Positions 366-28,270 of a stretch of DNA of 32,269 nucleotides are shown piece after piece (positions within the stretch are counted from its first letter, which is position 1; every line of letters begins with the position of its first letter). Below the pieces are notes generated by a model. That model saw only the letters and a program-made list of their open reading frames with translations, searched no databases and was not told the DNA's origin. The DNA comes from Candidatus Komeilibacteria bacterium CG_4_10_14_0_8_um_filter_37_78 (GTDB taxonomy: Bacteria; Patescibacteriota; Patescibacteriia; UBA1558). The translations under genes were made by a program, and so were the position numbers. Location: assembly GCA_002785295.1 (NCBI GenBank), contig PFMC01000070.1, positions 1-32,269 of the forward strand, given 5' to 3'.

Positions 366-611
366 GTGTTAGAGGTAAAACGAAAACAGAGTGAAACCTT
401 TGAAAGTCTACTACGTAGATTTACCAAAAAAACAATCCAAAGTGGAAAATTATTACAAGCTAAAAAAATAAGATTCCATCAAAAACCTAAAACTACTCTC
501 AAGCGGAAAGAGTCAGCTTTAAAGCGTGAAGAATTTAAGAAACAGCGAGAGTATTTAAGAAAGACTGGTAAACTCGATGAATTTTTAGAGAAAATGAAAA
601 AACGAAGATAA
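366..611 (+). CDS. rpsU: 30S ribosomal protein bS21
   Basis: EVKRKQSETFESLLRRFTKK...RFHQKP pattern, very basic, upstream of yqeY as is typical. Start moved from 357 to GTG 366 because AAGGAGGT (351-358) overlaps 357 and lies 7 nt before 366. Confidence 0.92.
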   Translation: MLEVKRKQSETFESLLRRFTKKTIQSGKLLQAKKIRFHQKPKTTLKRKESALKREEFKKQREYLRKTGKLDEFLEKMKKRR

Positions 612-1057
612 TGACTTTGTACCAACAAATAGAGGCAGATCGTATGATAGCAATGAAAGCCAGTGATGAGCTGAGGCTGTCCACTTTGCGTATGATTTCA
701 ACGGTTATGAAGAATGCCATGATTGCTAAGAAGGGTGAATTGACCGATGAAGAAGTGCAGAAAATATTGCGGACTGAAGTAAAAAAGAGAAAAGAAGCTC
801 ACGAGGCATTTTTGAAGGCAGACTATCAGGATAAAGCTGCTCAGGAGAAGACTGAAATGGCAATGATCGAAGCTTATTTACCAGCACAAATGTCAGATCA
901 AGATTTAGAGCAGTTGGTTAGCAAGACTTTGCAAGCGGCAAACATGTCAGAGCCTAGTCAATTTGGTCAGGCTATGGGAGTGGTGATGAAAGAACTTGCT
1001 GGACAGGCTGATGGTGCCAAAGTTCAAAGTTTGATTAAGAAAATCCTCAATACTTAG
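611..1057 (+). CDS. yqeY: GatB/YqeY domain protein
   Basis: AMKA-D--RLSTLRM, KKRKEA, YLPAQMS, MGVVMKELAGQADG motifs; 148 aa; coupled to rpsU by TAATG. Confidence 0.93.
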   Translation: MTLYQQIEADRMIAMKASDELRLSTLRMISTVMKNAMIAKKGELTDEEVQKILRTEVKKRKEAHEAFLKADYQDKAAQEKTEMAMIEAYLPAQMSDQDLEQLVSKTLQAANMSEPSQFGQAMGVVMKELAGQADGAKVQSLIKKILNT

Positions 1058-1112: not shown

Positions 1113-3443
1113 ATGCTTGAGTCAGTAAAAATATTTTTATCTAAAAGAAGAATTGCGATCTTATCGATTTATTTTTTGATAGCAATTCTTTTTTTGTTGG
1201 CAGTTCCAGTCTTTGCAGCAGATAGCTTCAATTTAGATGAAACGGGGACAGGACTTGGTTTGACACCGGTAGCTGAGGATTTTAGCATCCGGCAAACAGT
1301 GATCAATATTGTGAAGTACTTGATTGGCTTCATTGGTATCGCTGCTATTGTGATGATCCTTTATGGCGGTGTCAGGTGGATGACAGCGGGTGGTAGTGTT
1401 GATAAAGTGGCTAAAGCAAAGAAGACAATTATTAATGCTGCAATTGGGCTGATGATTTGTATTTTATCTTATGCCATTGTTTATTTTGTAGCTTTTCAGT
1501 TGGGTGATGAAGTTTTTGGTGATGGTTCGGGTGGTGATGGAACAGCACCATACTATTCTGGTGGTTTGGGTGGCGGGGCAATTGCCAGTCATTATCCACC
1601 ACGTGGGGCTGTTGGGGTACCGCGTAATATTAATATAGTAGTTACTTTCCGTGATCTAATAAATCCAGGTTCAATCACTGCCGACACAGTGGAGATTAGA
1701 AACAATACACAAGATAGTGTTAATACTTGGACTAATAGTACGACAGATAATAGAACCTTTGTATTTTTTCCAGATAATGACCTTGGTAGTGATGCTGAGG
1801 ATAATATTTATATAGTTACTTTGAAAAATGGTATTGAAAATTCTGAAGGTGACCTGATCTTTGGTAATCTAGGTTATGAATATACTTGGCAGTTTACTGT
1901 CTCTATAGAAATTGATGTTACGCCACCGACTGTTGTTGGGATTTACCCAGCTGATAATGATGGCACAGCATATCCTCGCAATACAATTGTGCAGATGGTT
2001 TTTAGTGAACCAGTGATTGGTTCTACTGGAACTTTTACAATTCAGGAACCGAACTTTACTAATATCCAGGTTTATGCAGTATGGGGCGTTAACGAAGGTC
2101 TTTATGGTACCTTTGTAGCTTCTAATAATTATCGGACAACAGAATTTATTCCAGCCGCTGTTTGTGGTGAGAATGGTTGTGGTGATGTAATGCATTGTTT
2201 TTTAATGGATAGTATGTGTACTGATATTCCTGATGGAGAAGACTGTATTCATGAACATGGAGTGAGGATCAAGACCGATCTCACGCCAGGTTTTCCTTTT
2301 GAGGGCATTGTAGATATGGCTGGCAATCCGCTAGACGGAGATGAGGATGGAACAGGCGGTGAAGGCACAGAAGATGACAAGACTTGGAGCTTTGATCTTA
2401 TTGATGAGCTTGATCTGACACCACCACAAATTATAGAGAAATCACCTGGCGCTTTTGAGAATAGCGTACCATTAAATAAGCCAGTTAAAGTTACTTTTTC
2501 AGAATTAATGATGTCTAGTACTTTAAATGCAGATAATTTAGCGATTGGCATATTTGGGTTAGAAGACGGAATACCTTATTGGGTGACAAGTGATATAGCA
2601 GAAGTGGATATCGATGGTGATTTAATAGAAACAACAATTGCTAATATTAATCATGATGTTTTTAGCTCTTTCACGGTTCATGAAAATAGAGTGCTGAGTA
2701 GTTGTCAGGATATTAACCAGAATTGTTTGTTAATTATTGAAGATCGTAGTGCTCAAGGAAGGGGATTTATTGCGCCACAATTATTAGAGGGTTTAGTAGG
2801 TCATTGGAACTTTGATGAAGGTGCGGGAATGACAGTTGCTGATTTATCTGGGACAGGAAATGATGGTACATTATATCGATTACAAGAAGATGATTGGGTG
2901 ACCAACAGTACTGGTTCGGCAATTGATTATGATGGAGATAAGGGCTATGTCAATGTCTTACATGATGAAAGTTTGATGTTCGACGGACCATTCTCTGTGT
3001 CATTATGGGTTAAATTAACAACAGATCCTTTATCTTATAAAAATGGTCAGCCGAATTGGGTTCCACAGTTTGTTTCTAAGAGTAGTTGGGGTGCTGATTT
3101 TCGTGTCAGATTTTGGACAGGCGGTAAAATAGCATTTGCTACTTATGGACTGAGTAATTCATCATTAACAACAAAGAATCAAGTATTGTTTCAAGACAAG
3201 TATGTTCATGTGGTTGCTGTTTGGGATGGTGTCAGTAAACTTATTTATATTGATGGTGAGGAGAATGCAAGATTTGATGGTGTGACTGGTCAACTCGCTC
3301 ATCTTGATCACAACCTTGGTATAGGCGCGAATCGGTTTGGTTCAGAATCTTTTCTGGGCCTAATAGATAATGTCCGTATTTATAATAGAGCATTAACTCC
3401 ACAAGAGGTAGGATTATTATATGATATTGAGTTTGTAGAATGA
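1113..3443 (+). CDS. Surface protein: signal peptide, T4SS-pilin (VirB2/TrbC-like) domain, three Big_5-like Ig domains, C-terminal LamG-like domain
   Basis: Signal ending VFA; two-helix IVMILYGGVRWMTAGG-S-DKV-KAKK-IINAAIGL-I---SYAIV pilin motif; repeated P-V----P------VP-N--I-V-FSE Ig starts; GLVGHWNFDEG...FLGLIDNVRIYNRALT LamG signature. Confidence 0.85.
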   Translation: MLESVKIFLSKRRIAILSIYFLIAILFLLAVPVFAADSFNLDETGTGLGLTPVAEDFSIRQTVINIVKYLIGFIGIAAIVMILYGGVRWMTAGGSVDKVAKAKKTIINAAIGLMICILSYAIVYFVAFQLGDEVFGDGSGGDGTAPYYSGGLGGGAIASHYPPRGAVGVPRNINIVVTFRDLINPGSITADTVEIRNNTQDSVNTWTNSTTDNRTFVFFPDNDLGSDAEDNIYIVTLKNGIENSEGDLIFGNLGYEYTWQFTVSIEIDVTPPTVVGIYPADNDGTAYPRNTIVQMVFSEPVIGSTGTFTIQEPNFTNIQVYAVWGVNEGLYGTFVASNNYRTTEFIPAAVCGENGCGDVMHCFLMDSMCTDIPDGEDCIHEHGVRIKTDLTPGFPFEGIVDMAGNPLDGDEDGTGGEGTEDDKTWSFDLIDELDLTPPQIIEKSPGAFENSVPLNKPVKVTFSELMMSSTLNADNLAIGIFGLEDGIPYWVTSDIAEVDIDGDLIETTIANINHDVFSSFTVHENRVLSSCQDINQNCLLIIEDRSAQGRGFIAPQLLEGLVGHWNFDEGAGMTVADLSGTGNDGTLYRLQEDDWVTNSTGSAIDYDGDKGYVNVLHDESLMFDGPFSVSLWVKLTTDPLSYKNGQPNWVPQFVSKSSWGADFRVRFWTGGKIAFATYGLSNSSLTTKNQVLFQDKYVHVVAVWDGVSKLIYIDGEENARFDGVTGQLAHLDHNLGIGANRFGSESFLGLIDNVRIYNRALTPQEVGLLYDIEFVE

Positions 3444-6400
3444 TCAAGAAAATAAACATTGTAGCTTTAATCATTGTCATCGGTATTATAATAATACCAA
3501 GTCTTGTTTTTGGTGCTGACGGGTTTGGTTTAAATGAGACAGGTGAAGGATTAGGCTTTGCGCCGCGTGGTGCTGATTTTAGTATCCGTGGTCTAGTAAT
3601 TGGGATAGTCAAATATTTGATTGGCTTGATTGGCGTCGCTGCCATTGTGATGATCCTTTATGGCGGCGTTCGTTGGATGACAGCTGGCGGTAGTCCAGAC
3701 AAGGTCAATAAAGCAAAAAAAATAATTATCAATGCGGCTATTGGCTTGGCTATTTGTATTGCTGCTTTTGCTATCGTTAGCTTTATTCAGTATCAAGTGA
3801 CAACATGGATTGCACCAGGAGACGATGATGACGATGATGATGGCGATGGGCTATCTGATCCAATAGTTTTTATTATCTCAGATTGGGATCCAGAAGATGG
3901 CGAGGTTAATTTACCTCGTAATCTGAACATTGGCATTGATTTTAATCAGAATATAGACGTAGTAAGTATTAATCTCAATCAGATCACATTAACTCAGACG
4001 GTGGCCGGAGTTGAAGAACCAATTGATTTAGAAATAGAAGATCTTACTATCACAAACCGAAGAATAGAAATAAGGGCGCCGGGTAATTGTGATGAGCCAA
4101 ATATTGATTATTGTTATGATGCTAATGCTGTTATTAGTGTAGTGGTTGGTGCTAATACTATTTTATCAGCTGATGACGGTGAGAGTATTAGTTGTGCTAG
4201 TAGTGAATATAATTGTAATATCTCAATTTCAGTAGGTGAGTTGTTTGATACAGAGCCGCCAACTGTCCAGGTTACTTATCCTATTAATGGTAGTAGTTTT
4301 AGAAATGGGCAAAATTTTGGTTTAGAAGCTCATACTACTGATAATGTTGATGTCACTAATGTGATATTTTATGCTAATGGTTTCAATATGAATGCGCTGG
4401 TTGTTGAAGTACAAGAGAATTCTTGGGCTGCTTCTTGGACTCTTAGCGGTTATCAGGATGGGAATTATATTTGGCTCATAGCTAGGGCGATTGACAGCAG
4501 TGGTAATGAGTCATTATCCAATTTTGTCAGGATTAGACAAATACCAGCTCACTGTGTTGATGGTTTGCAAAACGAAGATGAAACAGGTCTTGATTGTGGC
4601 GGCAGTTGTGGGGCCTGTGAAGGCGAATCTTGTGATACGAATAATAATGAAAATATTTGTGATCCAAATGGTGATTGTGCGGCAGAGCTTTATTGTGATG
4701 AAGTAAATTGTCTTTGTGAAGTCGCCACAATCATTACGAGCATATCTTCAGATAATGGTGCTGTTGGCAATTTGGTCACAATTAACGGCATAAATTTTGG
4801 TGAAGGGGAAGGAGAAATATATTTTAATAATGGTCAAGTGTTGGTGCCAGCACGAATAGCTGAATGTAATGGTGCATGGACGGACACCCAGATTATTGTC
4901 GTGGTACCAGAATTACTGGAAAGTGGGGACCTGGCCGTTATTAGTGTGTACACAGAAGGAGGTAGTGGAGACGATACTGTTAATAGTCGAGGGTGGCAAG
5001 GCGTCTTTGAGGTTAATGATATTTTACGTCCAGGAATTTGTGCAGTAACGCCACCGGAAGGTAGAGCATTTAGTACTATAGTTGTTAGTGGTGAGCAATT
5101 TGGTAATACTACAGATGTACTTGAAGTTGGTGGTTTTAATGCTGCTATAAATGATTGGACTAATACTGATATTGAAGGCACTATTCCTAATATCAATCCA
5201 GGTACAGTTGGCGTGCGTGTCTTAGTAGATGGTGAGTATAGTAATGTGCTTAATTATACAATCGCAGCAGATGATATTAATCCGATCATTGCTTATTTAA
5301 ATCCGGCAGCTGGTCCAGTAGGACAGTATGTGACAATCTATGGAGATAATTTTGGTTATGATGAGAACGCTATCAGTATTACATTTGGTGGTGTAGCAGC
5401 AGACATCTCCTTTCCAACACAGTGTGGTGCATGGGAGATAGATAATAATGAAATTTTAGTTAAAGTACCAAGCAATTTAGCTTTAGACACTGTTAATGTA
5501 GTAGTGACGAGAAATGGTTATCAGAGTGATCCAGTAAACTTTACAGTAAATAATGATCCTTTATTACCAGGGCTTTGTTTATTAGAGCCAAATCATGGAT
5601 TACCAAGTTCAGAGATAAATATTTATGGTGAAGGATTTAGTAATGCTAATGGTCAGGTATTTTTTTATAATAATCGAGAAGCAGTTTTTGATTCATGGAA
5701 TAATACTACAGTCAATACAGCTGTTGTGCCTTTGGAGGCAGTGACTGGACCAGTGCAATTGGAAAATAGCGCTGATGTGATCAGTGGTAATACTTTAAAT
5801 TTTACAGTTGATATTTGTACTGAAAGTAATACTCCTCCAGATAAAGAATGTTGTATTGATGGTAGTATTGCAGACATTGGACAATGTGAAAATAATGGTG
5901 TACCTGGCGTAACAGAAGACACCTGGATGTTTACAACTGGCGTGCCATTTGAAGTAACTGACTGGACACCAACTTGCGATAGTGCCTGTTTGAACGCGGC
6001 AATTCAAGTAAATTTTAGTCATTCTATTTTACCAAGCAGTATATTAAATAATGATTGTGTACAAATTGAATGTTTGTCTGATAGTTGTCCAGATATTGAT
6101 CCAACTATTTCATTGGCAGAGGGAAACCTGGTTATTAATTATGCTGGTGAACTACAAGCTGATTCTCAGTACCGGGTGATTGTGCACACTGGTGAATATA
6201 ATGATGGCCAATGCGTATTAAGTGCTGCCGATGGTTGGCCTTTTGTGAATGTTAATTATGATACTGATGATGATCAAGTAGCAGATAGTTTTGCTTGGGT
6301 TTTTGCCACATCAGATGAGTTCTGTACTTTGGAGAGGGTAGAGGTAGATCCAGAGTTCGTGGAATTTTTATACCAGGATAATGAGGTGGCAGTCTTAGCC

Positions 6401-9400
6401 AAGGGTTATGGTCAACCAGATAGTTGTCAGGCAGAAGGTCAATTGTTAAATGCTTATGATTATGATTGGGATTGGCGGTCAGCAAATGCTAGTTTAGCAA
6501 CTCTGACTCAGAGAAATGAAAATTTTGATGACAAAATAGATCCGATTGCTGATGTTTATCCTTTTTTCAATGAAGCGACTGGCCGCACCTTTGGGGATAC
6601 TCAGATTATAACTGAGACGACTAATGAAGAAGGATATCAAGTAACTAATAATATGGATGTCAGCGTTGATCTTGATGTGCCGATTATTACTGAAATAGAT
6701 CCAATAACAGTATTTTTGAATCCAGAAGTAGTTACCTATACAACAATAGATGGTGTGAACTTTGGTGATCCGCAAGGTAGTAGCTATGTTATGGTAGGGA
6801 ATCAAATTGCTACTATTGCTGGTTGCCAAGGGGCGTGGAGTAATAATCAAATTGTCATTGAAGTACCTGCTGGTACTAGCACTGGTGATAAAATAAGAGT
6901 GATCAAAGCTAGGGGAGAGGATGAATCAGATGATGTCTTGGGTGTATTAGAGGATGAAGATGATTTGACTGTTATTTTGTGTAGTATTAATCCAAGCTAT
7001 GGACAAGGCAATACAGCAATTACTTTGCATGGTTATAATTTTGGTGATACGCAGATTGATAGTCGCGTTATTTTTAACGATGACGAAGCGCATTATAAAT
7101 ACGCAACAGTTAATTTATGGGCCAATGAACGTATTGTAGGATTTGTTCCTAGTAATATAGCTATTCGCCAAGAACCAATAGTTGTCTTTGTGAATGTTTT
7201 GGACAATGAAAATGGATTAGATGTTAATTCCAATCCAGTTAATTTTGACATCGCTCCACATATTGACTATATTAGCCCAAACAATGGTCCAATTGGACAG
7301 TATGTTACTATTTATGGTCGTAATTTTGGTGATCAGTCAGGGATTGTCAATTTGGGTAATACAGCAATGACTGCTACACCAGATTTCTGTGGCGATACTT
7401 GGACTAATAATGTGATTGTGCGAGTAGTGCCAGCTGGTTTAAGTTTAAGTGATTATGAGTTGGCTGTTACTACTAGTACGGGTTTAACTTCGAATGCTGT
7501 TAACTTTGTTTTGAATAATAATGTGCCAGGACCAAATTTATGCTTATTAGAACCTGATAACGGTGATACGGACGATAATATAGTGTTGAGTGGTGATAAT
7601 TTTGGTGCTGATTCAGATTTGATCCAACCTCTGGTCAGTGGTGCCAATCTTTGCGAGGTTGATGATACTAGTTTTAGTAATACTAATATTAGTGGTCCAA
7701 TTACAGCAGGAGTGAGAAGTGGTGAAGCTGTAGTTAGAAAATCTTATATTATTAGCCATGAATGTAATGGCTTTCATATTGGAAACTGGTGCCCCTTTGG
7801 TTATACTGATGTTTATGGCTATTTATTTAGTAATAGTTTACCGTTTAGTAAATTGAATAGTAGTAGTGGGGGGGAGGGGTGTAGTAATTTACCAAACACT
7901 TGTGTACCTGATTCTAATATTTGTGAAGAAGGGTTGATTTGTAATGATAGTTGTGTTTGCGTATCAGATGATGGTTCAAATGGACAGTGTGGTGATGGTA
8001 ATATAGATGCAGATGAGCAATGTGAAAATAATCCACCAAATAATATAGATGGCGATGGCTGCAGCGCTACTTGTCAGAATGAATTTGATGATTTGGTGTG
8101 CGGTGATTGGATTATTCAAGTGCTTAATAGTGATGGAGTTAATGAGGAGTGTGATGATGGTAATAATATTGATAATGATGGTTGTAGTGCAACTTGCCAA
8201 AACGAAAATGACGATAATATTGTGGTGCCAGTAGGCGCTTCACAGTGTGGTAATGGCACACTAGATGGTGGAGAGCTGTGTGATTTTGATACTGATGGTA
8301 CTGTTTTATGGTCAGACGGAGAACCGCTTTGTACAGATTTGGGATTGTATCAGGGTGGTTCTGTTGGTTGTGATCCTAGTGATTGTAGCTATGATACAGC
8401 AATGTGTATTTATGGTTCACCTAGTAGCGGAGTTTGTGTTAATACTGAGGCGTCTGTGACTTTTGAAGGTTTTATGGATAGTACAACTTTTGTTTATGGG
8501 ACTGATGACAGCGTACAATTAGAGAGCTTTGATGATGAAGCTTGTAGTGCAGGTTGTTTAGTATCAGCAACACTTGATTTTGAAATTTCTGGTGAGCAGC
8601 CATTCAGTTTTAGGAAACTATATATTATGCCAATTGATTTCTTAGATCCAAATACTGATTATCAAGTTACTTTAATTGGTGGTGATGCTGGAATATTATC
8701 AATTGAGGGTAATCAGTTAGACAGTGATTTTATTTGGTCATTTGATACTGGCAGTTCATACTGTACAATTAGTCGAGTCGAGATTGCGCCAGCTAGTTAT
8801 CAATTCAATTCTTATAACGATGAGCAACCATTTATTGCTAATGTTTACGATCAGAATAATAATTCTTTGCATGGTAGTTGGATCGATTATGTTTGGGTTG
8901 AGAATGAGCCAAACAATAGTAATAAGCTTGATATTTATGGCGCAAACTCAAAAGAGTCTAGCATTTCTGTGTTTAATGATTCTATTAGTGGTCACACCTT
9001 CCTCAATGTAAATGTCAGTAGCGAGGTTGATGGCATTAGCTATGGATCAGCGTCAGATCAAGCGAGGATTGATATTGTTGTTTGTGATGAACCGGTTGAA
9101 TATACAAATGCAACTTATAATTTTAGAACTTGGTATTGCCGAGATGGTAGTGGTGATGAATTGTTACCAGAATTGGACCCACATGAATCGAATAATTTGG
9201 GAGATAATATTTTGTATGATGTTTTGTATACTCAAGATGGTAGTGTTGATGGTATCGGGTTGAGAATTTATACCAACTTCTATCATTATGATCCATTATT
9301 ATGGTATCAAGAAAATATAGATATTATGGGTAGTCCGGCAGCTACTAGTATTGATGGCTATGAAGCGATTCAAGAAGGCCGGTCTACTTATATTAACGCT

Positions 9401-10006
9401 GTCAATCAACCAGTAGAAGATATCTATACTAATATTTTTGTTTGGTCATACACTCAAAATGCTTCACCAGGAACTATTAATTTATATAATCAGTTAGTCA
9501 ATAATCTAGAGTTTAATACTAATATACCAAGTCAGGCTACCAAACAAGGGCTGACACGTGATGCCAAGAGGGTAGCAGATTATCGCGAAATTAAGTTAGT
9601 TTTGGGTGATGGCAATTATCCAGCACTTGATTCAGGAAGTTATTTGCAGCACACCTCTGTCTCTACTTGGGATTCATGGCAAAATGCATTAGGAGCGGAA
9701 CTGGGTGTGACTTTGCCGGTTGATCCTCTTAATCAACATGTTAACTGTGATTTGCCAGGCTTTGACCCCATCACTTGTTGGAATCAAACAACAGAAGAGT
9801 ATAGCTGTACTTTAGGCTCTCGCATTTATCGTTATGATTATCTAGCAAATGATTCATATTTGATCAATATGGAATTTGATATTACGAACAGTTTATGGAA
9901 AGGCGACCTTTTTTCAGATATTCCTGATTTCTTTGTTGATCACAATGATTGTGCTGTTGAGCCGATCAATATTCAGGATGATGCCGATAATAGTGATAAT
10001 CAATAA
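3440..10006 (+). CDS. Giant surface protein (2188 aa): signal, T4SS-pilin-like domain, Ig-like domains, 8 IPT/TIG repeats, DUF4215/Myxococcus-type Cys-rich repeats, C-terminal pseudopilin-like segment
   Basis: Same pilin motif as the upstream gene; eight I----P--G--G--VTI-G-NFG repeats; CGDG-----E-CDDGN----DGCS--CQ-E repeats; acidic and Cys-rich; ATGA overlap with the upstream gene. Confidence 0.85.
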   Translation: MIKKINIVALIIVIGIIIIPSLVFGADGFGLNETGEGLGFAPRGADFSIRGLVIGIVKYLIGLIGVAAIVMILYGGVRWMTAGGSPDKVNKAKKIIINAAIGLAICIAAFAIVSFIQYQVTTWIAPGDDDDDDDGDGLSDPIVFIISDWDPEDGEVNLPRNLNIGIDFNQNIDVVSINLNQITLTQTVAGVEEPIDLEIEDLTITNRRIEIRAPGNCDEPNIDYCYDANAVISVVVGANTILSADDGESISCASSEYNCNISISVGELFDTEPPTVQVTYPINGSSFRNGQNFGLEAHTTDNVDVTNVIFYANGFNMNALVVEVQENSWAASWTLSGYQDGNYIWLIARAIDSSGNESLSNFVRIRQIPAHCVDGLQNEDETGLDCGGSCGACEGESCDTNNNENICDPNGDCAAELYCDEVNCLCEVATIITSISSDNGAVGNLVTINGINFGEGEGEIYFNNGQVLVPARIAECNGAWTDTQIIVVVPELLESGDLAVISVYTEGGSGDDTVNSRGWQGVFEVNDILRPGICAVTPPEGRAFSTIVVSGEQFGNTTDVLEVGGFNAAINDWTNTDIEGTIPNINPGTVGVRVLVDGEYSNVLNYTIAADDINPIIAYLNPAAGPVGQYVTIYGDNFGYDENAISITFGGVAADISFPTQCGAWEIDNNEILVKVPSNLALDTVNVVVTRNGYQSDPVNFTVNNDPLLPGLCLLEPNHGLPSSEINIYGEGFSNANGQVFFYNNREAVFDSWNNTTVNTAVVPLEAVTGPVQLENSADVISGNTLNFTVDICTESNTPPDKECCIDGSIADIGQCENNGVPGVTEDTWMFTTGVPFEVTDWTPTCDSACLNAAIQVNFSHSILPSSILNNDCVQIECLSDSCPDIDPTISLAEGNLVINYAGELQADSQYRVIVHTGEYNDGQCVLSAADGWPFVNVNYDTDDDQVADSFAWVFATSDEFCTLERVEVDPEFVEFLYQDNEVAVLAKGYGQPDSCQAEGQLLNAYDYDWDWRSANASLATLTQRNENFDDKIDPIADVYPFFNEATGRTFGDTQIITETTNEEGYQVTNNMDVSVDLDVPIITEIDPITVFLNPEVVTYTTIDGVNFGDPQGSSYVMVGNQIATIAGCQGAWSNNQIVIEVPAGTSTGDKIRVIKARGEDESDDVLGVLEDEDDLTVILCSINPSYGQGNTAITLHGYNFGDTQIDSRVIFNDDEAHYKYATVNLWANERIVGFVPSNIAIRQEPIVVFVNVLDNENGLDVNSNPVNFDIAPHIDYISPNNGPIGQYVTIYGRNFGDQSGIVNLGNTAMTATPDFCGDTWTNNVIVRVVPAGLSLSDYELAVTTSTGLTSNAVNFVLNNNVPGPNLCLLEPDNGDTDDNIVLSGDNFGADSDLIQPLVSGANLCEVDDTSFSNTNISGPITAGVRSGEAVVRKSYIISHECNGFHIGNWCPFGYTDVYGYLFSNSLPFSKLNSSSGGEGCSNLPNTCVPDSNICEEGLICNDSCVCVSDDGSNGQCGDGNIDADEQCENNPPNNIDGDGCSATCQNEFDDLVCGDWIIQVLNSDGVNEECDDGNNIDNDGCSATCQNENDDNIVVPVGASQCGNGTLDGGELCDFDTDGTVLWSDGEPLCTDLGLYQGGSVGCDPSDCSYDTAMCIYGSPSSGVCVNTEASVTFEGFMDSTTFVYGTDDSVQLESFDDEACSAGCLVSATLDFEISGEQPFSFRKLYIMPIDFLDPNTDYQVTLIGGDAGILSIEGNQLDSDFIWSFDTGSSYCTISRVEIAPASYQFNSYNDEQPFIANVYDQNNNSLHGSWIDYVWVENEPNNSNKLDIYGANSKESSISVFNDSISGHTFLNVNVSSEVDGISYGSASDQARIDIVVCDEPVEYTNATYNFRTWYCRDGSGDELLPELDPHESNNLGDNILYDVLYTQDGSVDGIGLRIYTNFYHYDPLLWYQENIDIMGSPAATSIDGYEAIQEGRSTYINAVNQPVEDIYTNIFVWSYTQNASPGTINLYNQLVNNLEFNTNIPSQATKQGLTRDAKRVADYREIKLVLGDGNYPALDSGSYLQHTSVSTWDSWQNALGAELGVTLPVDPLNQHVNCDLPGFDPITCWNQTTEEYSCTLGSRIYRYDYLANDSYLINMEFDITNSLWKGDLFSDIPDFFVDHNDCAVEPINIQDDADNSDNQ

Positions 10007-10017
10007 GTCTTAAGTTT

Positions 10018-13000
10018 ATGAAAAAAAATATTTTAATATTAATAGTTATTCTACTGACAATGGGTTTTTTTAATATTACTAGCCTTCGGGCTGAGACAGT
10101 AGCTGAATGCGTCCAAGATATTGAGAGTAGACAAAATATTGAGCCGTTGAATGAAATCAGTGCTGGCATTACCCCTAAAAATATTTTTTATTTTTTAGAT
10201 GGTTTTGGTGATTGGATCAAGTTGCATTTATTTTCATTTACCACTGATGCTCAGATCAATACCCTACTCGAACAAGCCCAAGAAAGAGTAGCTGAGCTAG
10301 AGTCCTTACAACAGAGCAATGATTTATCTCTACTCCATATTAATACGATTACTGAAAGTTATAATAGCATTATGGATCAGTTGGATCTTGAGGTTCAAGG
10401 TTTAGTTGAGAGCAATAAAGATATTAGTGATATTTTGGCACGAGTAACCAAGCTGAATGCTAAAAACAACTTAATTATTAGCCAACTAATGGTTAGGGTG
10501 GGAGTTAGTAATTTTACTCCTTTAAGCGGTGTTTATAATAGTACTAAAGATAGTTTATGCGCCACGATTGATCTTTGGCAAGATGTCATAACGGAGTGTA
10601 ATGACAGTGCATTTATTTCTCAGAAGCTGTCAGTCTATTATAATGATGCGATCAATGAAATAGCTGATCTGGACGCTTCTCTAGAGCAAATTTCTACGGA
10701 TCAAGCAATGTTGACAGACTATTATGATCAAGTTTCGGGCGTGGTTAATAATATTAATACAGCCACAGCACTGCTCAATAATGTGATTGATAGTGGTTCG
10801 ATTTCGATTACTGATAAAGAAAGCATAATTAGTAGCTTTATCGCTGATGTTAATAGTGATGGTAATTATAGTAATATCAAAAATTCACAGCCAAATAGTG
10901 CAGAACTTGTCGAATATGGTTTGTCTGGAGTTTTGGCTACTGCCAATACTAGTTTGATCAATATTTTAAATCGCTTGGAAGACTTAACAGCAGTAGATAA
11001 TGATCAAGGGTTGGCAAGTTTTGTGGGAGATGTTTTGGCATTACAAAGTGATAGTGCTGAGTCACGTTTGGCTAGTATTCAAAGTCTTAGTGATAATATT
11101 GGTCAGGATCGAGCCAATCTACTTAGTAGTAAAAATAGTTGTCAAGCCTTGCGGAGTAAGTTTTTGAAAATCAGCGACGCCTTGGAAGATAGTAAATTGA
11201 CTAGCGCTACTGTTCTCTTAAACAATTTACAAACAGAGATTGATGATGTTGTTAGTGATTTATTACCTCGTTGTGGAGTGGGTGGACTTGTTGATTTTCT
11301 TTCTGAAGTATTTGCTGAAAGCACTGTTTTGAATAGTGATGGGCAGTGTCAAAGTGAGCAGTATCTACACGAGCTTGGTCAGTGGTCTCGCAATCAGCTA
11401 GCTTACTGGGATGAAACGATTTCTTATGTCGATGATTTAGCTGACAAGGTTGGTGAACAACAGACAGCTTTGGGTGGGTTTATAAATGGTCAACAAACAG
11501 CTGTTAGTATTGCTCAAAACAATGCCGCACAATTGAGTCAACGACCAACTAACAGTTTTAATATTAATGAGTTTTATAGTTTTGACCGTGGTTGGTTGAC
11601 CGATGAAGTGGTTGATTTTCAAGATCAGATGGCTGCTTTAGGAATAGAGATGGCTATTTTACAGGATGATTTACAAAATGCACAGATAATAGTTAATAAT
11701 TTACAGAACAATGTATTGGTTGCGGCGCAAAATAATGTCAATCAATTACAATCCGAATATGACCAATTAACTAGTGCTGTTCAAATATTGACTCAAGATA
11801 TTGTTCAGACACAGGCGCAGGTGGCCATTTCTCAAGCCAGCTTTGAAAATGCGACAGCTGGTGAGGCTAGTAGCGACCATGCAGTGCAGAGTGCATCTAG
11901 CATTGTTACTGCAGCTGAATTGGCTTTAGAAGAGGCGCAGGCCGCTTATGATGCTATGATCAGTAATGATGATCTAAATGTTGCGGTTAAAAATGGCGTG
12001 GATTATTATTATACTACTGCAAAAAGCCCCATCACGAATGGTATTTATTTTGGTGGTTTAGGAAGCTTCATTACTTATTATACTTTTGATCTTCCAAGTA
12101 GTGGCACGTATAATTTTTGGGTAGAAACATTGAATTATCCAGTTGATATGGCAAAAGACGGATATAATATTCCGCTGCGTCTTTACTATACGGCGCAAGA
12201 TACAACACAACTCGTCTACTGGAGCCCTATTATTAATAACCCTGCATCTAATCCAGAGATGCAGATCGCTACTTGGCCTAATAAATCTTTGATTGCTGGA
12301 ACCTATATTTTTAAACTTTATTATGCGGTCGATCGTACCTTACCGACTGAAGTTTCTAGCAAAATAAATATGTTGATCAATCGTGTTGGTATTGATAGTA
12401 CTCAATCTGGTAGACAGATAACGGTTTCAGAATTGGAGAATGCCGTAACTAGTGCCCAAACAGCATTAAATAATGCTCAAACAGCATTAAATAATGCTCA
12501 AAACAATTATGATCAGGCATTACTTGTCTTGGATTCAGCCGAACTTAATTTAGAAGTAGTGCAACAGAGTTTAGCAACTTTACTAGCTGATTTGATGGAG
12601 CAGCAGGAACTAGTGACTACAGCCGAGGAAGAGTTAGAAATTGCACATGCGAATTTGAGCGATCTTGTTGATAATCAGATTCCGGCTGCTCAAGCAGAAG
12701 TGATTAATCTCCAAAATCAAGTAAGTAATTTTGCTGATATTTTAGCTAGTGGTAGTGCTGAAGATATTATCAATCAAGAAATGAAGGCAGATATTATCAA
12801 GCAAGAGATCAACACAATCGTTAATGACAGTTTATCCGGTATTGCTAGTAGCTATCAAGACTTGGTGACTGAACTGTCAACTTATCAAAACACAGTGGCT
12901 GAAACGATCGCTTTGTATAGTGATTTGGCCACGGAGCTAGTCGCTGTGAATCAGTCATTGAACAATAATCAACTCGCTCAAGCTAAACAACAGATCAATA

Positions 13001-13710
13001 ATATTTTATTTAATTCATTGCAGGACTTGAAAACTAGCGAGTATGCAGAGCCAGCTTATTTTATAGGACACAATCTTAATGTCTTACAGTGGTTGATTGA
13101 TATTGATCAGCTTGATTTTGCTCGGCAAGATTTATATTTAGCAGAGGTAAGGGATGCTTTTGTACAATTACGAGAATTGTCATGTCCAGCTGCTCAACAA
13201 TTCTATAACACTGGAGTTAATGGTTTCTGCTCAATATCTATGAATAATAGTTTGTCTGCTGGTTGTGATTATATGACCAATTTGCAAATGTTGATTACTG
13301 AGGCTTGTACTACGGGCAGACAAGATTATTGCGGTGATGGTATAATTGATAGTGGTGAAACATGTGACGATTTCAATGATGTTTCAGGTGATGGTTGTGG
13401 TTCAACTTGTCAAAACGAGATTCTTTATTATTGTGGAGATGGTATCATACAGACACCAAACAGTTTGGGCATCAATGAAGAGTGTGAGAATACACCACCA
13501 AATCAGTTTGACGATGATGGTTGCTCAGCACAGTGTCAAAATGAAAATGAAGCATATTGTGGTGATGGTATTCTGCAGCAACCAAACGATGATGGTTTTA
13601 TGGAGCGTTGCGATGATGGTAATAGATTTGCTAGTGATGGCTGTAATAATCTTTGTGTTATAGAAAGAGGACAAAATAGTGGAATTATTATTAAATCTAT
13701 TAGACCTTAA
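10018..13710 (+). CDS. Large secreted coiled-coil protein: DUF5667-like N-terminus, central beta-sandwich insert, C-terminal DUF4215 Cys-rich repeats
   Basis: Signal peptide; AGITPKNIFYFLDGFGDWIKL...LEQAQERVAEL resembles DUF5667; long Q/A/L/N heptads; three CGDG...DGC...C repeats at the C-terminus. Confidence 0.75.
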   Translation: MKKNILILIVILLTMGFFNITSLRAETVAECVQDIESRQNIEPLNEISAGITPKNIFYFLDGFGDWIKLHLFSFTTDAQINTLLEQAQERVAELESLQQSNDLSLLHINTITESYNSIMDQLDLEVQGLVESNKDISDILARVTKLNAKNNLIISQLMVRVGVSNFTPLSGVYNSTKDSLCATIDLWQDVITECNDSAFISQKLSVYYNDAINEIADLDASLEQISTDQAMLTDYYDQVSGVVNNINTATALLNNVIDSGSISITDKESIISSFIADVNSDGNYSNIKNSQPNSAELVEYGLSGVLATANTSLINILNRLEDLTAVDNDQGLASFVGDVLALQSDSAESRLASIQSLSDNIGQDRANLLSSKNSCQALRSKFLKISDALEDSKLTSATVLLNNLQTEIDDVVSDLLPRCGVGGLVDFLSEVFAESTVLNSDGQCQSEQYLHELGQWSRNQLAYWDETISYVDDLADKVGEQQTALGGFINGQQTAVSIAQNNAAQLSQRPTNSFNINEFYSFDRGWLTDEVVDFQDQMAALGIEMAILQDDLQNAQIIVNNLQNNVLVAAQNNVNQLQSEYDQLTSAVQILTQDIVQTQAQVAISQASFENATAGEASSDHAVQSASSIVTAAELALEEAQAAYDAMISNDDLNVAVKNGVDYYYTTAKSPITNGIYFGGLGSFITYYTFDLPSSGTYNFWVETLNYPVDMAKDGYNIPLRLYYTAQDTTQLVYWSPIINNPASNPEMQIATWPNKSLIAGTYIFKLYYAVDRTLPTEVSSKINMLINRVGIDSTQSGRQITVSELENAVTSAQTALNNAQTALNNAQNNYDQALLVLDSAELNLEVVQQSLATLLADLMEQQELVTTAEEELEIAHANLSDLVDNQIPAAQAEVINLQNQVSNFADILASGSAEDIINQEMKADIIKQEINTIVNDSLSGIASSYQDLVTELSTYQNTVAETIALYSDLATELVAVNQSLNNNQLAQAKQQINNILFNSLQDLKTSEYAEPAYFIGHNLNVLQWLIDIDQLDFARQDLYLAEVRDAFVQLRELSCPAAQQFYNTGVNGFCSISMNNSLSAGCDYMTNLQMLITEACTTGRQDYCGDGIIDSGETCDDFNDVSGDGCGSTCQNEILYYCGDGIIQTPNSLGINEECENTPPNQFDDDGCSAQCQNENEAYCGDGILQQPNDDGFMERCDDGNRFASDGCNNLCVIERGQNSGIIIKSIRP
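12457..12502 (+). repeat. Perfect 21-bp tandem duplication encoding one heptad (QTALNNA)
   Basis: CAAACAGCATTAAATAATGCT at 12457-12477 and 12478-12498, then CAAA. Confidence 0.95.
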
Positions 13711-13733
13711 ATAAAAAATAATTAACAATAACT

Positions 13734-14492
13734 ATGTTTGAAGATTTACAAGCAAAAAAAATAAATGATCCAGCCGCTGCTGGAGGAGCAATACCACCAG
13801 TCAACACACCGCGACCAGCGCCAAGTCTAGACATGGACAAAGAGCCAGAAGATATGTTTGAGGTTATGGATAGTGCTAGTCCTGGAGCACCAAAGATTGT
13901 TATACCACCAACTCCTGGACCAATGCAGGCTAAGCCAGCACAAAGGGATTTGGGGCCAGCAGAGCCTCTCAGCACTTTGCCAGGTGGCAAGGCTACTAAG
14001 GGGGCTAAAAAGGCCAAATTAATTAATTTTAAACTGCTCAGTATCATTGGCAGCATCATTATCATCGCTGTTATTGTTGTTATTGTGGTCGTTTATACAA
14101 TCCCTACTCAGGAGGCTGATTTAGAAAACGATTTGCTATTAAATTCAAACTTAAATCAAAGCGACCCTGCTTTACCAGATTTGGGCGCACCAGTGACAGA
14201 CAGTATCAATGATAGTCAAGATCAGATTGATCAACCTGCTGAGATTATTGATTCTAATATTGATAGTGATGGTGATGGTTTGACTGACAGACAGGAAACA
14301 GTAATTGGTACAGATCCTTTTAATCCAGATAGTGATGGTGATGGTTTGTTTGACAATGAAGAGGTGGTCCTTTATGAGACAGATCCTCTTAATACTGATT
14401 CTGATGGTGATACTTTTCTTGATGGTGATGAAGTGAAGAATGGCTATAACCCAGCCGGTGAAGGAAAACTTTTACAATTACCTGTCGAGTAA
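13734..14492 (+). CDS. Single-pass membrane protein with Pro-rich N-terminus and bacterial TSP3-like Ca-binding repeats
   Basis: Hydrophobic [18 protein letters not shown]; three DSDGD repeats ([10 protein letters not shown]...[14 protein letters not shown]). Confidence 0.8.
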
Positions 14493-14569
14493 TTAGTTGT
14501 GAAGTTCAGCGATTAGAAATAGTAATTAATCTAAACAAAACTTAAAGGATAATATATTAGATAAGTCGT

Positions 14570-16222
14570 ATGATACCAAATGATAATTTAAGAGATAGTG
14601 AAATAATTGTTAATGGTGTGGATGCAGCAGCAGAGATTGGCATGCCTAGTAGTAGTGATTCTGGCCAGGCAATCAATGATGATTTTTACACTATGCCAAC
14701 TAAATTCAATCAGCCACGAACTAAGAAAATCAGCAAGTCCTTATTGATTATTATTGGTATTATAATAGTTGTTGGTTTATTAATTGCTGGCGCCATTTAT
14801 CTTTTTACTGCTAATATTTATGATCAAGGTAGTGATTTGTTAAACCCAAACTTGGTCAATCCAGGCGTCTTGGACGGTACCCCTAATGGTCTTCTAAACC
14901 CAGGAGAAAATAATAGTGATTATTTAGTAGAAGATCAGGAAGTACCAAAGGAGAGAGATGAGCAGAGGATAGCAGATATAGGAGATCTCCGTTCGGCTTT
15001 GGCTTTGTATTATTATGACAAGTCTGCTTATCCAGACATTTTGACAGATTTGATTAGTAAATATTTAAATGATATTCCGGTTAATCCTAGTCCCGGTGGT
15101 AGTACCTATCTTTATTTACCACAAGATAATAATCAGTCTTATAAACTGACTTTTGCTCTAGAACAGGGTGGGCAAATAGGTGGCTTGAAGTTGGTAGCAG
15201 GGGAGTATCAGGCTGATCCCAATATGATCAAGCCAATTTTAGGTGAGATTGACGATGGTCCAGAAACTACAATTCTACCGATCGATTTAATTGGTGGTTT
15301 GGATAGTGATAATGATACTTTAACGGATATTGAAGAAAATCTTTATAATACTAGCTCCATTTTAGTAGATACTGACGGTGATGGCTATTCAGACGCGGCA
15401 GAATTGGTCAATCTTTATGATCCAGCAATTGGTGGTAGTATACGATTGATTGATTCAGACAAGGTTGAGCAATATATCAACACTACTCAAAATTATTCCA
15501 TTTATTATCCTAGTGATTGGACAGTTATGGCCTTAACTGAGGACAAAACAGAGCTCTTGTTCAATTCCAATACAACAGAATTTATTCAAGTGATCATTAT
15601 TGATAATCCTTTGGGGTTGTCTGCTGAGCAATGGTATCTGCAATATAATCTTAGTGCCACTAAAGCAGATCTGACTGAGATAGTTGTCAATAATACTATT
15701 GGTATTCAAACTAGAGAAGGCTTGAGCACTTATTTCAGTTTGGGTAGCAAAGTCTATGCAGTGATTTATAATATGGGTACCACTAGTCAGTTAAATTATG
15801 AAATTACCTACCAGATGATGTTAAAGAGTTTTAATTTAATTACTATTGGATTAGCAGATCCTTTGGCTTTGCGCGATGCTCAACGATTGAGTGATATTAA
15901 TGCTATTCGTTTGGCATTGCTTAGTTATCAGGTAGACCAACTAGCCCTACCAACAGAGATTGATGATGATGTGGAGACTTATCAAATGATTGGTTCAGCA
16001 ACTGATAGTTGTGTGGTTGCTAGTAGTAGTCGCACAATAGTGGAGCAGTGCGTTGATTTGTATGATTATTTGGTGCCAGAATATTTATCAGATTTTCCCT
16101 ATGATGCACTATTGGGATCCACTAGTAATACTGGATATTATTTGAATCTATTAACAGATGGCACCTTGATTCTGGGAGCGATCCATGCGGAAGTAGAGGA
16201 TGTTTTAGAAGTAAATAATTAA
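14570..16222 (+). CDS. Single-pass membrane protein with two pseudopilin (GspG)-like globular segments, TSP3-like repeats and a central PsbP-like region
   Basis: One TM helix; RDEQRIADI..L.SAL.LYY.D...YP and RDAQRLSDI..I..AL..Y..D...LP motifs; DSDNDTL/DTDGDGYSD repeats; YSIYYPSDW...YQMMLKSF. Confidence 0.7.
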   Translation: MIPNDNLRDSEIIVNGVDAAAEIGMPSSSDSGQAINDDFYTMPTKFNQPRTKKISKSLLIIIGIIIVVGLLIAGAIYLFTANIYDQGSDLLNPNLVNPGVLDGTPNGLLNPGENNSDYLVEDQEVPKERDEQRIADIGDLRSALALYYYDKSAYPDILTDLISKYLNDIPVNPSPGGSTYLYLPQDNNQSYKLTFALEQGGQIGGLKLVAGEYQADPNMIKPILGEIDDGPETTILPIDLIGGLDSDNDTLTDIEENLYNTSSILVDTDGDGYSDAAELVNLYDPAIGGSIRLIDSDKVEQYINTTQNYSIYYPSDWTVMALTEDKTELLFNSNTTEFIQVIIIDNPLGLSAEQWYLQYNLSATKADLTEIVVNNTIGIQTREGLSTYFSLGSKVYAVIYNMGTTSQLNYEITYQMMLKSFNLITIGLADPLALRDAQRLSDINAIRLALLSYQVDQLALPTEIDDDVETYQMIGSATDSCVVASSSRTIVEQCVDLYDYLVPEYLSDFPYDALLGSTSNTGYYLNLLTDGTLILGAIHAEVEDVLEVNN

Positions 16223-16223: not shown

Positions 16224-16622
16224 ATGGCTATTGAATTAATTGATTTTGATCTATCTACCCAAGAAATGAGGGTTTTAAGAAAGACAGCTGCTCAAGCTGT
16301 TATTTCTTTGCGTTTAAAGGATATTGAGATTAGTATTATTAGTATTATTAGTCAGCGTATTAAAAATCTCAATAAGCTATATCGTCAGCAGGACGTGGTA
16401 ACAGATGTTTTGTCTTTTCGTTATGAGGATGAGGGGGAGATCTTTATTTGCTTACCGCAAACAAAGCGTCAAGCTAAAGAGAATAAAGTCACGCTTAGAG
16501 AAGAGCTACAGAAATTGATAGTTCATGGCATGGCTCACTTGGCTGGCTATGACCACATCAAGACAAGAGATTTCCAAGAAATGAAAAAGATCGAAGATAG
16601 AATTCTTAACAAAGTTAAATAG
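16224..16622 (+). CDS. ybeY: rRNA maturation endoribonuclease YbeY
   Basis: LN--YR--D--TDVLSF, GEIFIC and HGMAHLAGYDH metal motif. Confidence 0.95.
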   Translation: MAIELIDFDLSTQEMRVLRKTAAQAVISLRLKDIEISIISIISQRIKNLNKLYRQQDVVTDVLSFRYEDEGEIFICLPQTKRQAKENKVTLREELQKLIVHGMAHLAGYDHIKTRDFQEMKKIEDRILNKVK

Positions 16623-16682: not shown

Positions 16683-17036
16683 ATGTGTTTAAAGAAATTT
16701 AGCAAAAGTTTGTTCAGGGCCTTAAAGGGTTTACGCCAAGTTTGGCATGATGAAAACAATTTCCGTATTGAAATTGTTATTGCTATAATGGTGATAGTTT
16801 TAATGTTTTATTGGCAACTCCCTATTTTGGAAAAGATTAGCTTAATCAGCATGATCGCCTTGGTCTTGTCTCTAGAAGTTTTAAATACGGCTATTGAAAG
16901 GATAATGGACATTTTAAAGCCCAAGATTCATGACTATGTCGGGACAATCAAAGATATGGTAGCAGCAGCAGTGCTGATTGCCAGCTTAGCGGCTTTGATT
17001 ATTGGTCTGATTATTTTTTATCCATATTTATTTTAA
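16683..17036 (+). CDS. dgkA: Diacylglycerol/undecaprenol kinase (DgkA family)
   Basis: ENNFRI, EVLNTAIE, KDMVAAAVL motifs; three TM helices; follows ybeY. Confidence 0.92.
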   Translation: MCLKKFSKSLFRALKGLRQVWHDENNFRIEIVIAIMVIVLMFYWQLPILEKISLISMIALVLSLEVLNTAIERIMDILKPKIHDYVGTIKDMVAAAVLIASLAALIIGLIIFYPYLF

Positions 17037-28247: not shown

Positions 28248-28270
28248 TCTATAATTTAACTGTTATATCA

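Follow-up and report, generated by a model that had tools for sequence, protein, structure and literature searches.

The DNA analyzed here, called the window, is the 32,269-nt contig PFMC01000070.1 of Candidatus Komeilibacteria bacterium CG_4_10_14_0_8_um_filter_37_78 (contig C66 of a 758-kb genome in 85 contigs, rated 96% complete). The subject of this report is a group of five plus-strand genes in it, g1 to g5, two of which code for large proteins that combine a pilin module of the VirB2 type, known from type IV secretion systems (T4SSs), with a cargo resembling that of adhesins. The five open reading frames (ORFs) of 776, 2188, 1230, 252, and 550 aa are tightly packed between positions 1113 and 16222, with spacings of -4, 11, 23, and 77 nt from g1 to g5, and ybeY starts 1 nt past g5. 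Genes of ribosomal protein S21 and YqeY precede the cluster, those of YbeY and diacylglycerol kinase follow it, and beyond dgkA there are ftsA, ftsZ, and then the NrdR gene, as identified with Pfam. The GC content of the cluster is flat (0.34-0.40), and on this ground, together with the conserved housekeeping flanks, the possibility that the cluster is a mobile island is rejected. A scan for promoter-like sites (84 vs 67.6 expected) and terminator-like sites (11 vs 8.7 expected) was uninformative; the terminator scan found no plus-strand site inside the intergenic gaps of the cluster. All 24 sequencing runs listed are of DNA (23 bear the label of a groundwater or aquifer metagenome), and none holds RNA data.

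According to the hydropathy profiles, g1 and g2 each have two hydrophobic segments besides a signal peptide, g3 has the signal peptide alone, and g4 and g5 have a single membrane segment apiece, in agreement with the topology assigned to the five proteins in an earlier note made by a model from the letters of the window alone. That note had described five packed co-directional genes, of which g1 and g2 open with a signal peptide and a two-helix domain similar to T4SS pilins and continue with Ig/TIG/LamG/Cys-rich cargo, g4 and g5 being membrane-anchored proteins with Ca-binding repeats, and had seen neither VirB4 nor VirD4 nor a relaxase in the window. This description is borne out by the ORFs at 1113-16222, by matches of g1 and g2 to T4SS_pilin (PF18895) above its cut-off combined with the hydropathy, by the families Big_5, Big_7, TIG, DUF4215, and Laminin_G_3 that a Pfam search gives for the cargo, by the hydropathy and TSP3_bac repeats of g4 and g5 (in g5 the match is below the cut-off, with the motif invariant in 21/21 orthologues), and by the lack of Pfam matches to T4SS ATPase or relaxase families among the 18 other window ORFs of at least 80 aa.

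The N-terminal domains of g1 and g2 are genuine representatives of the VirB2/TrbC-like pilin family. PF18895, with a cut-off of 26.6 bits, matches g1 at aa 61-126 with 39.4 bits (43.5 bits with the module alone) and g2 at aa 56-116 with 40.7 bits, and both proteins have the predicted signal peptide, two helices, and basic loop of VirB2/TrbC pilins; the family TrbC/VirB2 (PF04956) scores 17.8 to 21.6 bits on g1, the latter with the module alone, under its cut-off of 27.9. An alignment was made of 44 N-termini, comprising 15 of the g1 type, 19 of the g2 type, the nine free pilins of the window genome, and one pilin-domain protein of its T4SS locus. PF18895 is matched by all 44 modules (34 fused, 10 free) and the canonical PF04956 by 30 of them at E <= 0.1 (best 1.9e-9); the similarity to VirB2/TrbC pilins, one of the two points on which the earlier note had made its reading depend, stands. 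The proteins depart from such pilins in size and surroundings: the latter are small stand-alone subunits (mature about 70-130 aa) with T4SS genes adjoining, whereas g1 and g2 have 776 and 2188 aa, the VirB4 and PrgI genes of this genome lie on contig C74, and its free pilins lie on contig C48.

In the 44-module alignment the fusion point is where the free pilins end. Among the 34 fused modules G86, G94, and G112 are present in 100% and G75, W89, T91, and K103 in 97%, a family signature at least as strong as that of the free pilins; the g1 module retains all of the family-invariant G75, G86, W89, G94, and G112, and the inter-helix loop W-M-T-x-G-G-x-x-D-K-x-x-x-A-K-K is likewise retained in the fused modules. 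The whole signature, including this loop, thus stays constrained after fusion, which a mere membrane anchor would not require. A35 of the A-x-A site is invariant in 15/15 g1 orthologues. In the AlphaFold model of g1 (m42d95f99eb8f) two helices come after the signal helix, at 59-90 and 96-134, with a predicted local distance difference test score (pLDDT) of about 80 and a loop at 91-95 between them. The mean pLDDT of 57.6 is low because the LamG part, with values below 50, has no alignment depth. A Foldseek search with the whole model returned Ig-like stalks only (Ig domains of LdtMt2, S-layer SbsC, cadherins), the hairpin itself drawing no match.

The cargo of both proteins is of the fibrillar-adhesin kind, i.e., repeated stalk domains combined with a binding domain (TIG six times, Big_5, Big_7, Laminin_G_3). 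In g1 Pfam recognizes Big_5 in two stretches, the model has three Ig-like beta domains at aa 157-540 (pLDDT 70-90), and a LamG domain forms the distal tip. This tip is limited to the window genome and its closest kin and is missing from 13/14 aligned orthologues; one orthologue has a different C-terminal extension and most have no tip domain at all. The giant g2 contains 68 Cys and 329 acidic vs 67 basic residues, and its orthologues vary in length from 2184 to 4619 aa in the order and from 1949 to 3296 aa in 12 loci sampled across the class. Its last 400 aa or so are conserved; this region has no Pfam match, and the best Atlas feature score of 0.75 gave no usable lead. In a comparison of g2 from two genomes of one genus, the identity is 72% over the proximal 1350 aa and 54%, with indels, over the distal half; the reference genes YbeY and DgkA of the same pair are 80% and 91% identical, respectively. 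The linker between module and cargo is of low complexity and variable among relatives, and a short D/S-A-T-G motif past helix 2 was read by eye in about 11/18 of the relatives' g2 sequences. No Pfam or NCBIfam family of a canonical surface anchor (LPXTG, SLH, autotransporter, type I secretion system) was found in the proteins of the cluster, and their C-termini are without LPXTG.

The locus is real, conserved, and class-specific. At the order level 20 loci were fetched around g5, and at the class level 12 loci were taken from 12 genomes of 11 families. The giant fusion, g4, g5, and YbeY occur in fixed order in 20/20 order-level loci (the contigs of loci L035 and L050 begin inside or just before the giant gene), and the giant fusion, g4, and g5 are present in 12/12 class-level loci, which had been picked from 23 giant frames already with a nearby g5 match; the gene order is kept in 32/32 loci. 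YbeY stands downstream of g5 in 20/20 order-level loci and YbeY-DgkA in 11/12 class-level loci, while S21-YqeY is found upstream in 11/12 class-level and 12/20 order-level loci, the other eight not reaching upstream of g1/g2. A g1-type gene precedes the giant in 18/20 order-level loci and in only 3/12 class-level ones, and between g2 and g4 an orthologue of g3 is present in 4/20 order-level loci, all of family f1, a fifth f1 genome being without it. From these counts the locus appears as a layered unit, with a class-wide giant fusion, g4, and g5, a patchy g1, and a family-specific g3. The five-gene cluster of the earlier note is therefore not conserved as a whole; the conserved unit consists of g2, g4, and g5 only. 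It is also worth mentioning that two loci have other inserts between the giant fusion and g4 (L042:12177-16667 of 4.5 kb and L141:3821-5701 of 1.9 kb), with no match to the five window genes; these may be lineage-specific accessories replacing g3.

Genome-wide searches gave the same limits. An orthologue of g5 is present in 41/41 sampled genomes of the order (seven families), and the g5 profile matches 147/151 genomes of the class, all 151 of which have PF18895. According to a hand count, among the 150 best-scoring PF18895 matches 29 lie in frames of at least 1500 aa and 13 in frames of 450-1499 aa, and 23 of the 29 giant frames have a g5-like match no more than about 12 kb away, on their own contig and strand; for the other six it is on a different contig, the giant gene running off the contig in at least two (G042, G175). 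A full-length g1-type protein occurs in 13/14 genomes of the same class and in 0/237 genomes of other Patescibacteria classes, where only the pilin part is matched, a few times in frames of 1100-1700 aa. The part of g5 comprising the TSP3 and PsbP domains occurs in 14/14 same-class and 0/237 other-class genomes at E <= 1e-20; three other-class matches are confined to the pseudopilin-like part, one of them in an unpublished genome. The named relatives belong to Candidatus Komeilibacteria (the closest), Falkowbacteria, Uhrbacteria, and Magasanikiibacteriota; the NCBI taxonomy places Komeilibacteria in the Parcubacteria group of Patescibacteria.

The pilin modules of g1 and g2 evolve in concert. 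In the window they are 77% identical over a 74-aa core, and in 15 genomes the identity of the two cores within a genome averages 73% (49-97%), vs 48-50% for orthologous modules of different genomes. At the DNA level the only repeat common to both genes, D1, is 71% identical, and blastn of g1 against g2 in seven genomes gave each time one shared tract of 250-341 nt with 72-92% identity, which covers the mature pilin module only and leaves out the signal peptide and the cargo; D1 is the stretch that is homogenized between g1 and g2 in the relatives. In the tree g1 and g2 modules pair by genome, and the approximately unbiased (AU) test rejects the g1 modules as one clade (p = 0.00024), this group having been named after the identities were known and before the tree was made. 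A similar relation to the free pilins is seen: for 12/12 fused modules in 6/6 genomes the most similar free pilin comes from the same genome, with margins of 1-13 identity points, even though the other genomes offered about five times more free pilins for the comparison. As two pairs of the six genomes are close kin, this amounts to about four independent lineages. The two modules of the window group with free pilins 6 and 7 of their own genome (98/96). Taken together, these observations suggest a link, perhaps through exchange, between the fused modules and the free pilins.

The other three proteins of the locus are diverse. A single N-terminal hydrophobic segment is seen in g3, a putative coiled-coil protein with weak matches to SMC and PgrA (E 0.002-0.003). 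In g4, TSP3_bac scores 54.1 bits, the D/G repeat columns are invariant across 21 aligned orthologues, and three to five repeats are present per protein. The g4 orthologues of family f7 (L040, L041, L048) bear a C-terminal PsbP-like domain like that of g5, which makes g4 and g5 partly paralogous. In g5 TSP3_bac reaches only 19.7 bits (cut-off 25), with the D-x-D-x-D-G motif invariant, and a weak PsbP match is present. The AlphaFold model of g5 (mb2914450d104) has a mean pLDDT of 76.8; its PsbP part resembles cyanobacterial PsbP (2xb3, E 4e-6) and BT_1490 (3hlz, E 3.4e-6) in Foldseek, and its pseudopilin part EpsG (4lw9, probability 1.00, TM-score by target 0.50) and 3gn9 (probability 0.99), with 24% identity. 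The fold is thus that of GspG-like pilins; no T2SSG Pfam match was found in g5 at E <= 0.01, and neither a class III leader nor a continuous hydrophobic alpha-1N is present, the membrane helix (aa 56-83) standing behind a 55-aa tail and being parted from the pseudopilin domain by a disordered linker (aa 83-121). That g5 is a processed type IV pilin is ruled out by the lack of the class III leader. Two further observations concern these families: in L140, one of the class-level loci, a tandem of two g4-like genes is present, and the second pseudopilin-like domain of g5 has a paralogue that stands alone as a 159-aa protein, encoded at C58:13541-13924 (34% identity), with counterparts in all five other genomes of the family.

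Parts of a T4SS-type machinery are encoded elsewhere in the genome. PF18895 is found in 12 places, two in the window, nine on contig C48, and one on contig C74. Nine tandem genes of free VirB2-like pilins of 108-190 aa occupy the minus strand at C48:15700-19950 (L019:1704-5952), right behind the genes of a solute-binding protein and an NTP transferase, in a region with recA, ftsK, and rpoBC; the first of these pilins bears a Cys-rich tail. The 7.4-kb contig C74 (L018:1-7436) encodes PrgI (VirB3-like), a VirB4-like ATPase that matches TraG P-loop, AAA_10, and weakly CagE_TrbE_VirB, a 317-aa protein composed of a PF18895 module and an extension of about 190 aa, and three small bitopic membrane proteins without family matches. 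Free pilins and a VirB4-like ATPase, which the earlier note had advised to seek outside the window, are thus both present. No match to the relaxase family PF03432 was found in the 96%-complete genome, as expected of the non-conjugative system which that note had envisaged. T4SS-DNA_transf gives sub-threshold matches only, and TrwB_AAD_bind matches two ATPase frames on C38 and C40, a model that also matches in 11/14 control genomes. A VirB4-like gene is present in 143/151 genomes of the class.

Upon the architecture, family membership, conservation, and concerted evolution of these genes a chain of functional steps can be built, every one of which we infer. Its core would be the giant fibrillar adhesin g2 with its complete VirB2-type pilin N-terminus, joined in this order by the shorter g1 bearing the same module; the module would serve in export, anchoring, or polymerization, and the cargo in host attachment. 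The proteins would be exported by Sec and, judging from the sequence, cleaved by signal peptidase I after the A-x-A site. The hairpin would then reside in the membrane, with the linker and the Ig/TIG/LamG/Cys-rich ectodomain outside, a topology predicted from the positive-inside rule and the architecture of VirB2: the Lys-rich loop fits the cytoplasmic side, and the cargo is therefore predicted to be outside the cell. Taken by themselves, these two steps, which yield a surface adhesin held by a VirB2-like hairpin, are considered probable. In the next and least certain step a T4SS-like machine (VirB4, VirB3/PrgI, and the nine free pilins) may recognize the module and build it, sparsely or at the tip, into the free-pilin pilus, by which the adhesin would be carried from the cell surface toward the host cell. 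Finally, g4 and g5, as Ca2+-binding bitopic envelope partners, may hold or guide the adhesins, as suggested by their strict synteny. The whole chain, i.e., a lineage-specific surface contact apparatus with pilin-headed adhesins docking into a T4SS-type pilus, is the reading we favor and is given slightly less than an even chance. The interpretation offered in the earlier note is plausible and is supported in part. The notion of the VirB2-type pilin as a portable polymerization handle, with a T4SS-like machine extracting adhesin-bearing pilins into the free-pilin pilus or onto its tip, is tentative and, on balance, rather unlikely.

Several observations weigh against incorporation into a pilus. 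A polytopic VirB6-like gene is absent from contig C74 and the TrbL/VirB6 family has no match in the genome. VirB4 has no match at E <= 1e-5 in 8/151 class genomes that hold g5 and pilin genes (four of the eight are rated 100% complete, all being drafts of 30 to 130 contigs), and the cluster never adjoins the VirB4 gene where both positions are listed (e.g., G071, G066, G004, G075). The profile of the 44 modules retrieved no solved VirB2, TraA, or TrbC chain from all PDB chain sequences (two spurious matches, E 0.44 and 1.3), and a tblastn search of 72,556 plasmid records with the g1 module gave zero matches. The AU test does not reject a tree in which the fused modules together form a clade separate from the free pilins (p = 0.18), which is why exchange with the free pilins is only suggested, and neighboring paralogues can become homogenized by gene conversion through mechanics alone. 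For steric reasons a subunit bearing 650-4500 aa of cargo would fit awkwardly into a five-start helical pilus, and therefore only rare or terminal incorporation is conceivable. A complex prediction with two g1 and two g2 modules scored 0.00 and counts neither way.

Many of these points fit the main rival explanation, a serious candidate that we nevertheless find doubtful, in which the hairpin is only a Sec-inserted two-helix anchor, g1 and g2 stay bound to the cell as ordinary fibrillar adhesins, spanning the wall and any S-layer without ever entering a pilus, and the similarity to the free pilins results from common descent and local gene conversion. The housekeeping surroundings of the locus, apart from VirB4, the class genomes without detected VirB4, the awkward cargo size, and the unrejected monophyly of fused vs free modules all agree with it, and in proteins with neither LPXTG nor SLH some other anchor is required. 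A generic anchor, however, would tolerate drift, whereas the loop and the invariant Gly and Trp of the 34 fused modules are as conserved as in free pilins; moreover, the homogenized tract spans the whole mature module in lineage after lineage, and the closest free pilin always comes from the own genome. If the module were instead only an export tag, which directs the protein to the membrane and is afterwards removed with release of a soluble adhesin or a free pilin, the coincidence of the fusion point with the natural C-terminus of free pilins, the flexible Gly/Asp linker behind it, and the recurring D/S-A-T-G motif would find a ready explanation, and canonical TrbC and VirB2 pilins are indeed trimmed at their C-termini. 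Such processing is nonetheless highly improbable here, given a locus without a protease gene, a variable low-complexity linker in place of a conserved site, and a freed 2000-aa adhesin that would lose its attachment to the cell, since no other anchor domain was detected.

Two other explanations concern the partners. The strictly syntenic arrangement of the giant fusion, g4, and g5, the concerted evolution of the g1 and g2 modules, and the pseudopilin-fold domains in g5 would also suit a self-contained short fibre, a stub or bundle formed by the g1 and g2 modules upon a base of g4 and g5, independent of the T4SS and the free pilins; but 9/12 class-level loci have a single pilin fusion and no g1, so that a g1-g2 pairing cannot be the general principle, and the locus is without an assembly ATPase, which leaves this version very unlikely. 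It is unlikely, to a lesser degree, that g4 and g5 (and g3) are mere neighbors, unrelated envelope proteins sharing an ancient operon slot with the adhesin genes: the whole region is indeed a housekeeping operon, rpsU-yqeY ... ybeY-dgkA-ftsA-ftsZ, and g3 is dispensable in most lineages, yet the giant fusion, g4, and g5 occur together with their order kept in all loci, and the PsbP part of g5 and the full-length g1-type protein share the same limits of distribution.

Patescibacteria, for which the name candidate phyla radiation (CPR) is also in use, account for a large part of bacterial diversity and apparently live attached to other cells, and to our knowledge the means of attachment of most of them are unexplained. 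Here, a single-copy core locus of a whole class (Komeilibacteria, Uhrbacteria, Falkowbacteria, Magasanikbacteria) covalently joins a T4SS pilin to giant adhesins, and such pilin-headed adhesins may explain how ultrasmall groundwater bacteria hold other cells. This provides a concrete and testable link between pilus and attachment, with g2, g4, and g5 as defined targets for proteomics, cryo-electron tomography, and antibodies. In the one genetically tractable species the T4SS of Patescibacteria is essential and without DNA-transfer parts, according to the accessible part of the report by Wang et al. 2023 (PMC10633639). Were the VirB2-type pilin indeed such a polymerization handle, this would be the first modular conjugative pilin, a T4SS-built fibre with covalent giant adhesins; the non-conjugative, essential system would gain a concrete job, host capture, and g4 and g5 would be a previously unknown class-specific envelope platform.

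Table 1. Positions of the genes, domains, and repeat of the locus in the window, with the layout of the encoded proteins (aa)
Feature	Position (nt)	Strand	Description and evidence
g1	1113-3443	+	776 aa, pilin-headed adhesin; signal peptide aa 1-35, pilin module 36-134, Gly-rich linker, three Ig-like (Big_5-type) domains 157-540, LamG 607-766
g1 pilin module	1218-1514	+	mature N-terminus, helix 1, basic loop WMTAGGSVDKVAKAKK, helix 2
g1 Laminin_G_3 (concanavalin-A-like lectin) domain, distal tip	2931-3410	+	Pfam, aa 607-766, 89.5 bits
DNA repeat D1	1209-1481 and 3506-3778	+	repeat search, g1 and g2
g2	3440-10006	+	2188 aa, giant pilin-headed adhesin; signal peptide aa 1-25, pilin module 26-124, poly-Asp linker, Big_7 274-343, six TIG stretches (best aa 615-703), DUF4215/myxo Cys-rich repeat 1553-1590, Big_5 1663-1770, conserved unannotated C-terminal about 400 aa
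g2 pilin module	3515-3811	+	PF18895, 40.7 bits
g2 conserved C-terminal region, no family	8807-10003	+	50% identity to the end of the giant in L035, matches in L040 and L050
g3	10018-13710	+	1230 aa, secreted protein; signal peptide, DUF5667 aa 50-141, long helical region, three Cys-rich acidic C-terminal repeats aa about 1097-1220 (Pfam DUF5667, DUF4215; NCBIfam)
g4	13734-14492	+	252 aa, bitopic membrane protein; conserved motifs MFED and EDIF in the cytoplasmic tail, membrane segment aa 94-130, Ca-binding TSP3 repeats (three) aa 177-240
g5	14570-16222	+	550 aa, bitopic membrane protein; cytoplasmic IHTMPxKF-type motif in 55-aa tail, membrane helix aa 56-83, disordered linker, GspG-like pseudopilin-fold domain 126-222, TSP3 Ca repeats 245-280, PsbP/Mog1-like domain 295-425, second pseudopilin-like domain 431-550 (family f1 only)
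Ribosomal protein S21 (rpsU)	357-611	+	upstream flank; Pfam Ribosomal_S21
YqeY	611-1057	+	upstream flank; Pfam YqeY
YbeY	16224-16622	+	downstream flank; Pfam
Diacylglycerol kinase (dgkA)	16683-17036	+	downstream flank; Pfam

Some features of the window lie apart from the locus. About 1.7 kb at 28250-29990, between an adenylate-kinase-like gene and tRNA-Pro(GGG) at 29992-30069, contain no ORF longer than 75 aa on either strand, and the Rfam matches are limited to the tRNA and one to RT-6 below the threshold, at 29624-29693 on the minus strand (20 bits, E 0.23). Parts of ComEC are distributed between two ORFs 385 nt apart, with DUF4131 and Competence in one (23962-25467) and the metallo-beta-lactamase domain in the other (25853-26767), which are either a split ComEC or two genes. 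Two overlapping ORFs of 155 and 107 aa without a Pfam family are located at 20082-20869 between nrdR and the gene of an HtrA-like protease.

Among known systems, the closest are the VirB2-like pilins of other Patescibacteria, which the accessible parts of two reports and a review (PMC10633639, PMC12102498, and PMC12857230, respectively) describe as small proteins standing alone, encoded in arrays of 2-11 genes that may or may not be close to virB4. These arrays and the g1/g2 locus share the family PF18895, the phylum, and the lack of a relaxase, and the window genome itself has a nine-gene array, VirB4, and PrgI; the arrays differ in consisting of small pilins, while the window has two adjacent pilin-domain genes, both large fusions, whose modules head 776- and 2188-aa proteins at a fixed housekeeping site with two membrane partners. 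Adhesins such as PrgB were not detected, according to the available part of PMC12102498 (Quinonero-Coronel et al. 2025). As far as their accessible text goes, the related papers deal with free VirB2-like pilins or arrays in Patescibacteria and with giant surface proteins in other lineages (PMC12102498, PMC10633639, PMC12857230, 10.1101/2023.11.21.568195, PMC8080830), and in this partly accessible literature no description was found of a VirB2-like pilin fused to large cargo, with the reservation that supplementary tables may list such proteins among VirB2 homologues. In public databases the relatives of g1 are named 'hypothetical protein', and their precomputed Pfam assignments are already Big_5 and T4SS_pilin. 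The Pam pilus of CPR is, from what is available of PMC13278184, a different system, based on Ig-fold donor-strand exchange, and PrgF of pCF10 has been proposed as the VirB2-like pilin of a Gram-positive T4SS in the accessible part of 10.64898/2025.12.18.695078.

With VirB2, TrbC, and TraA (PF04956) the modules share the signal peptide, two hydrophobic helices, and a short basic loop; unlike them, g1 and g2 have a large C-terminal cargo, are chromosomal and vertically inherited, and have no DNA-transfer genes nearby. In function, the role proposed for g1 and g2 would be similar to that of the pilus-tip proteins VirB5 and CagL and of LPXTG-anchored PrgB, which provide target-cell contact for T4SSs (PMC12857230, in its accessible part), but VirB5 is a separate small protein, PrgB is sortase-anchored, neither is homologous to g1 or g2, and here the adhesin is covalently part of the pilin.

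The principle of a modular pilin is otherwise known from type IV pili, those of Streptococcus sanguinis including PilB with a vWA module and PilC with a lectin module. As in g1 and g2, a polymerizing pilin is combined there with a C-terminal adhesive domain, in one case a concanavalin-A-like lectin as in g1. The two differ in that PilB and PilC belong to the unrelated type IV pilin superfamily, with a class III signal peptide, a prepilin peptidase, and a one-domain cargo, whereas g1 and g2 have leaders of the signal-peptidase-I type and a cargo of 650-4500 aa; the principle is thereby extended to the conjugative pilin superfamily. Finally, g1 and g2 share with fibrillar adhesins the TIG/Big stalk repeats, the lectin-like tip, the acidic and Cys-rich composition, and the fast-evolving distal parts, and differ in the anchor, which in fibrillar adhesins is LPXTG, SLH, an autotransporter, or a type I secretion system and in g1 and g2 the N-terminal VirB2-like hairpin. 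The locus is a variant of the VirB2-like pilins of Patescibacteria in which these act as the heads of giant adhesins accompanied by two dedicated membrane partners.

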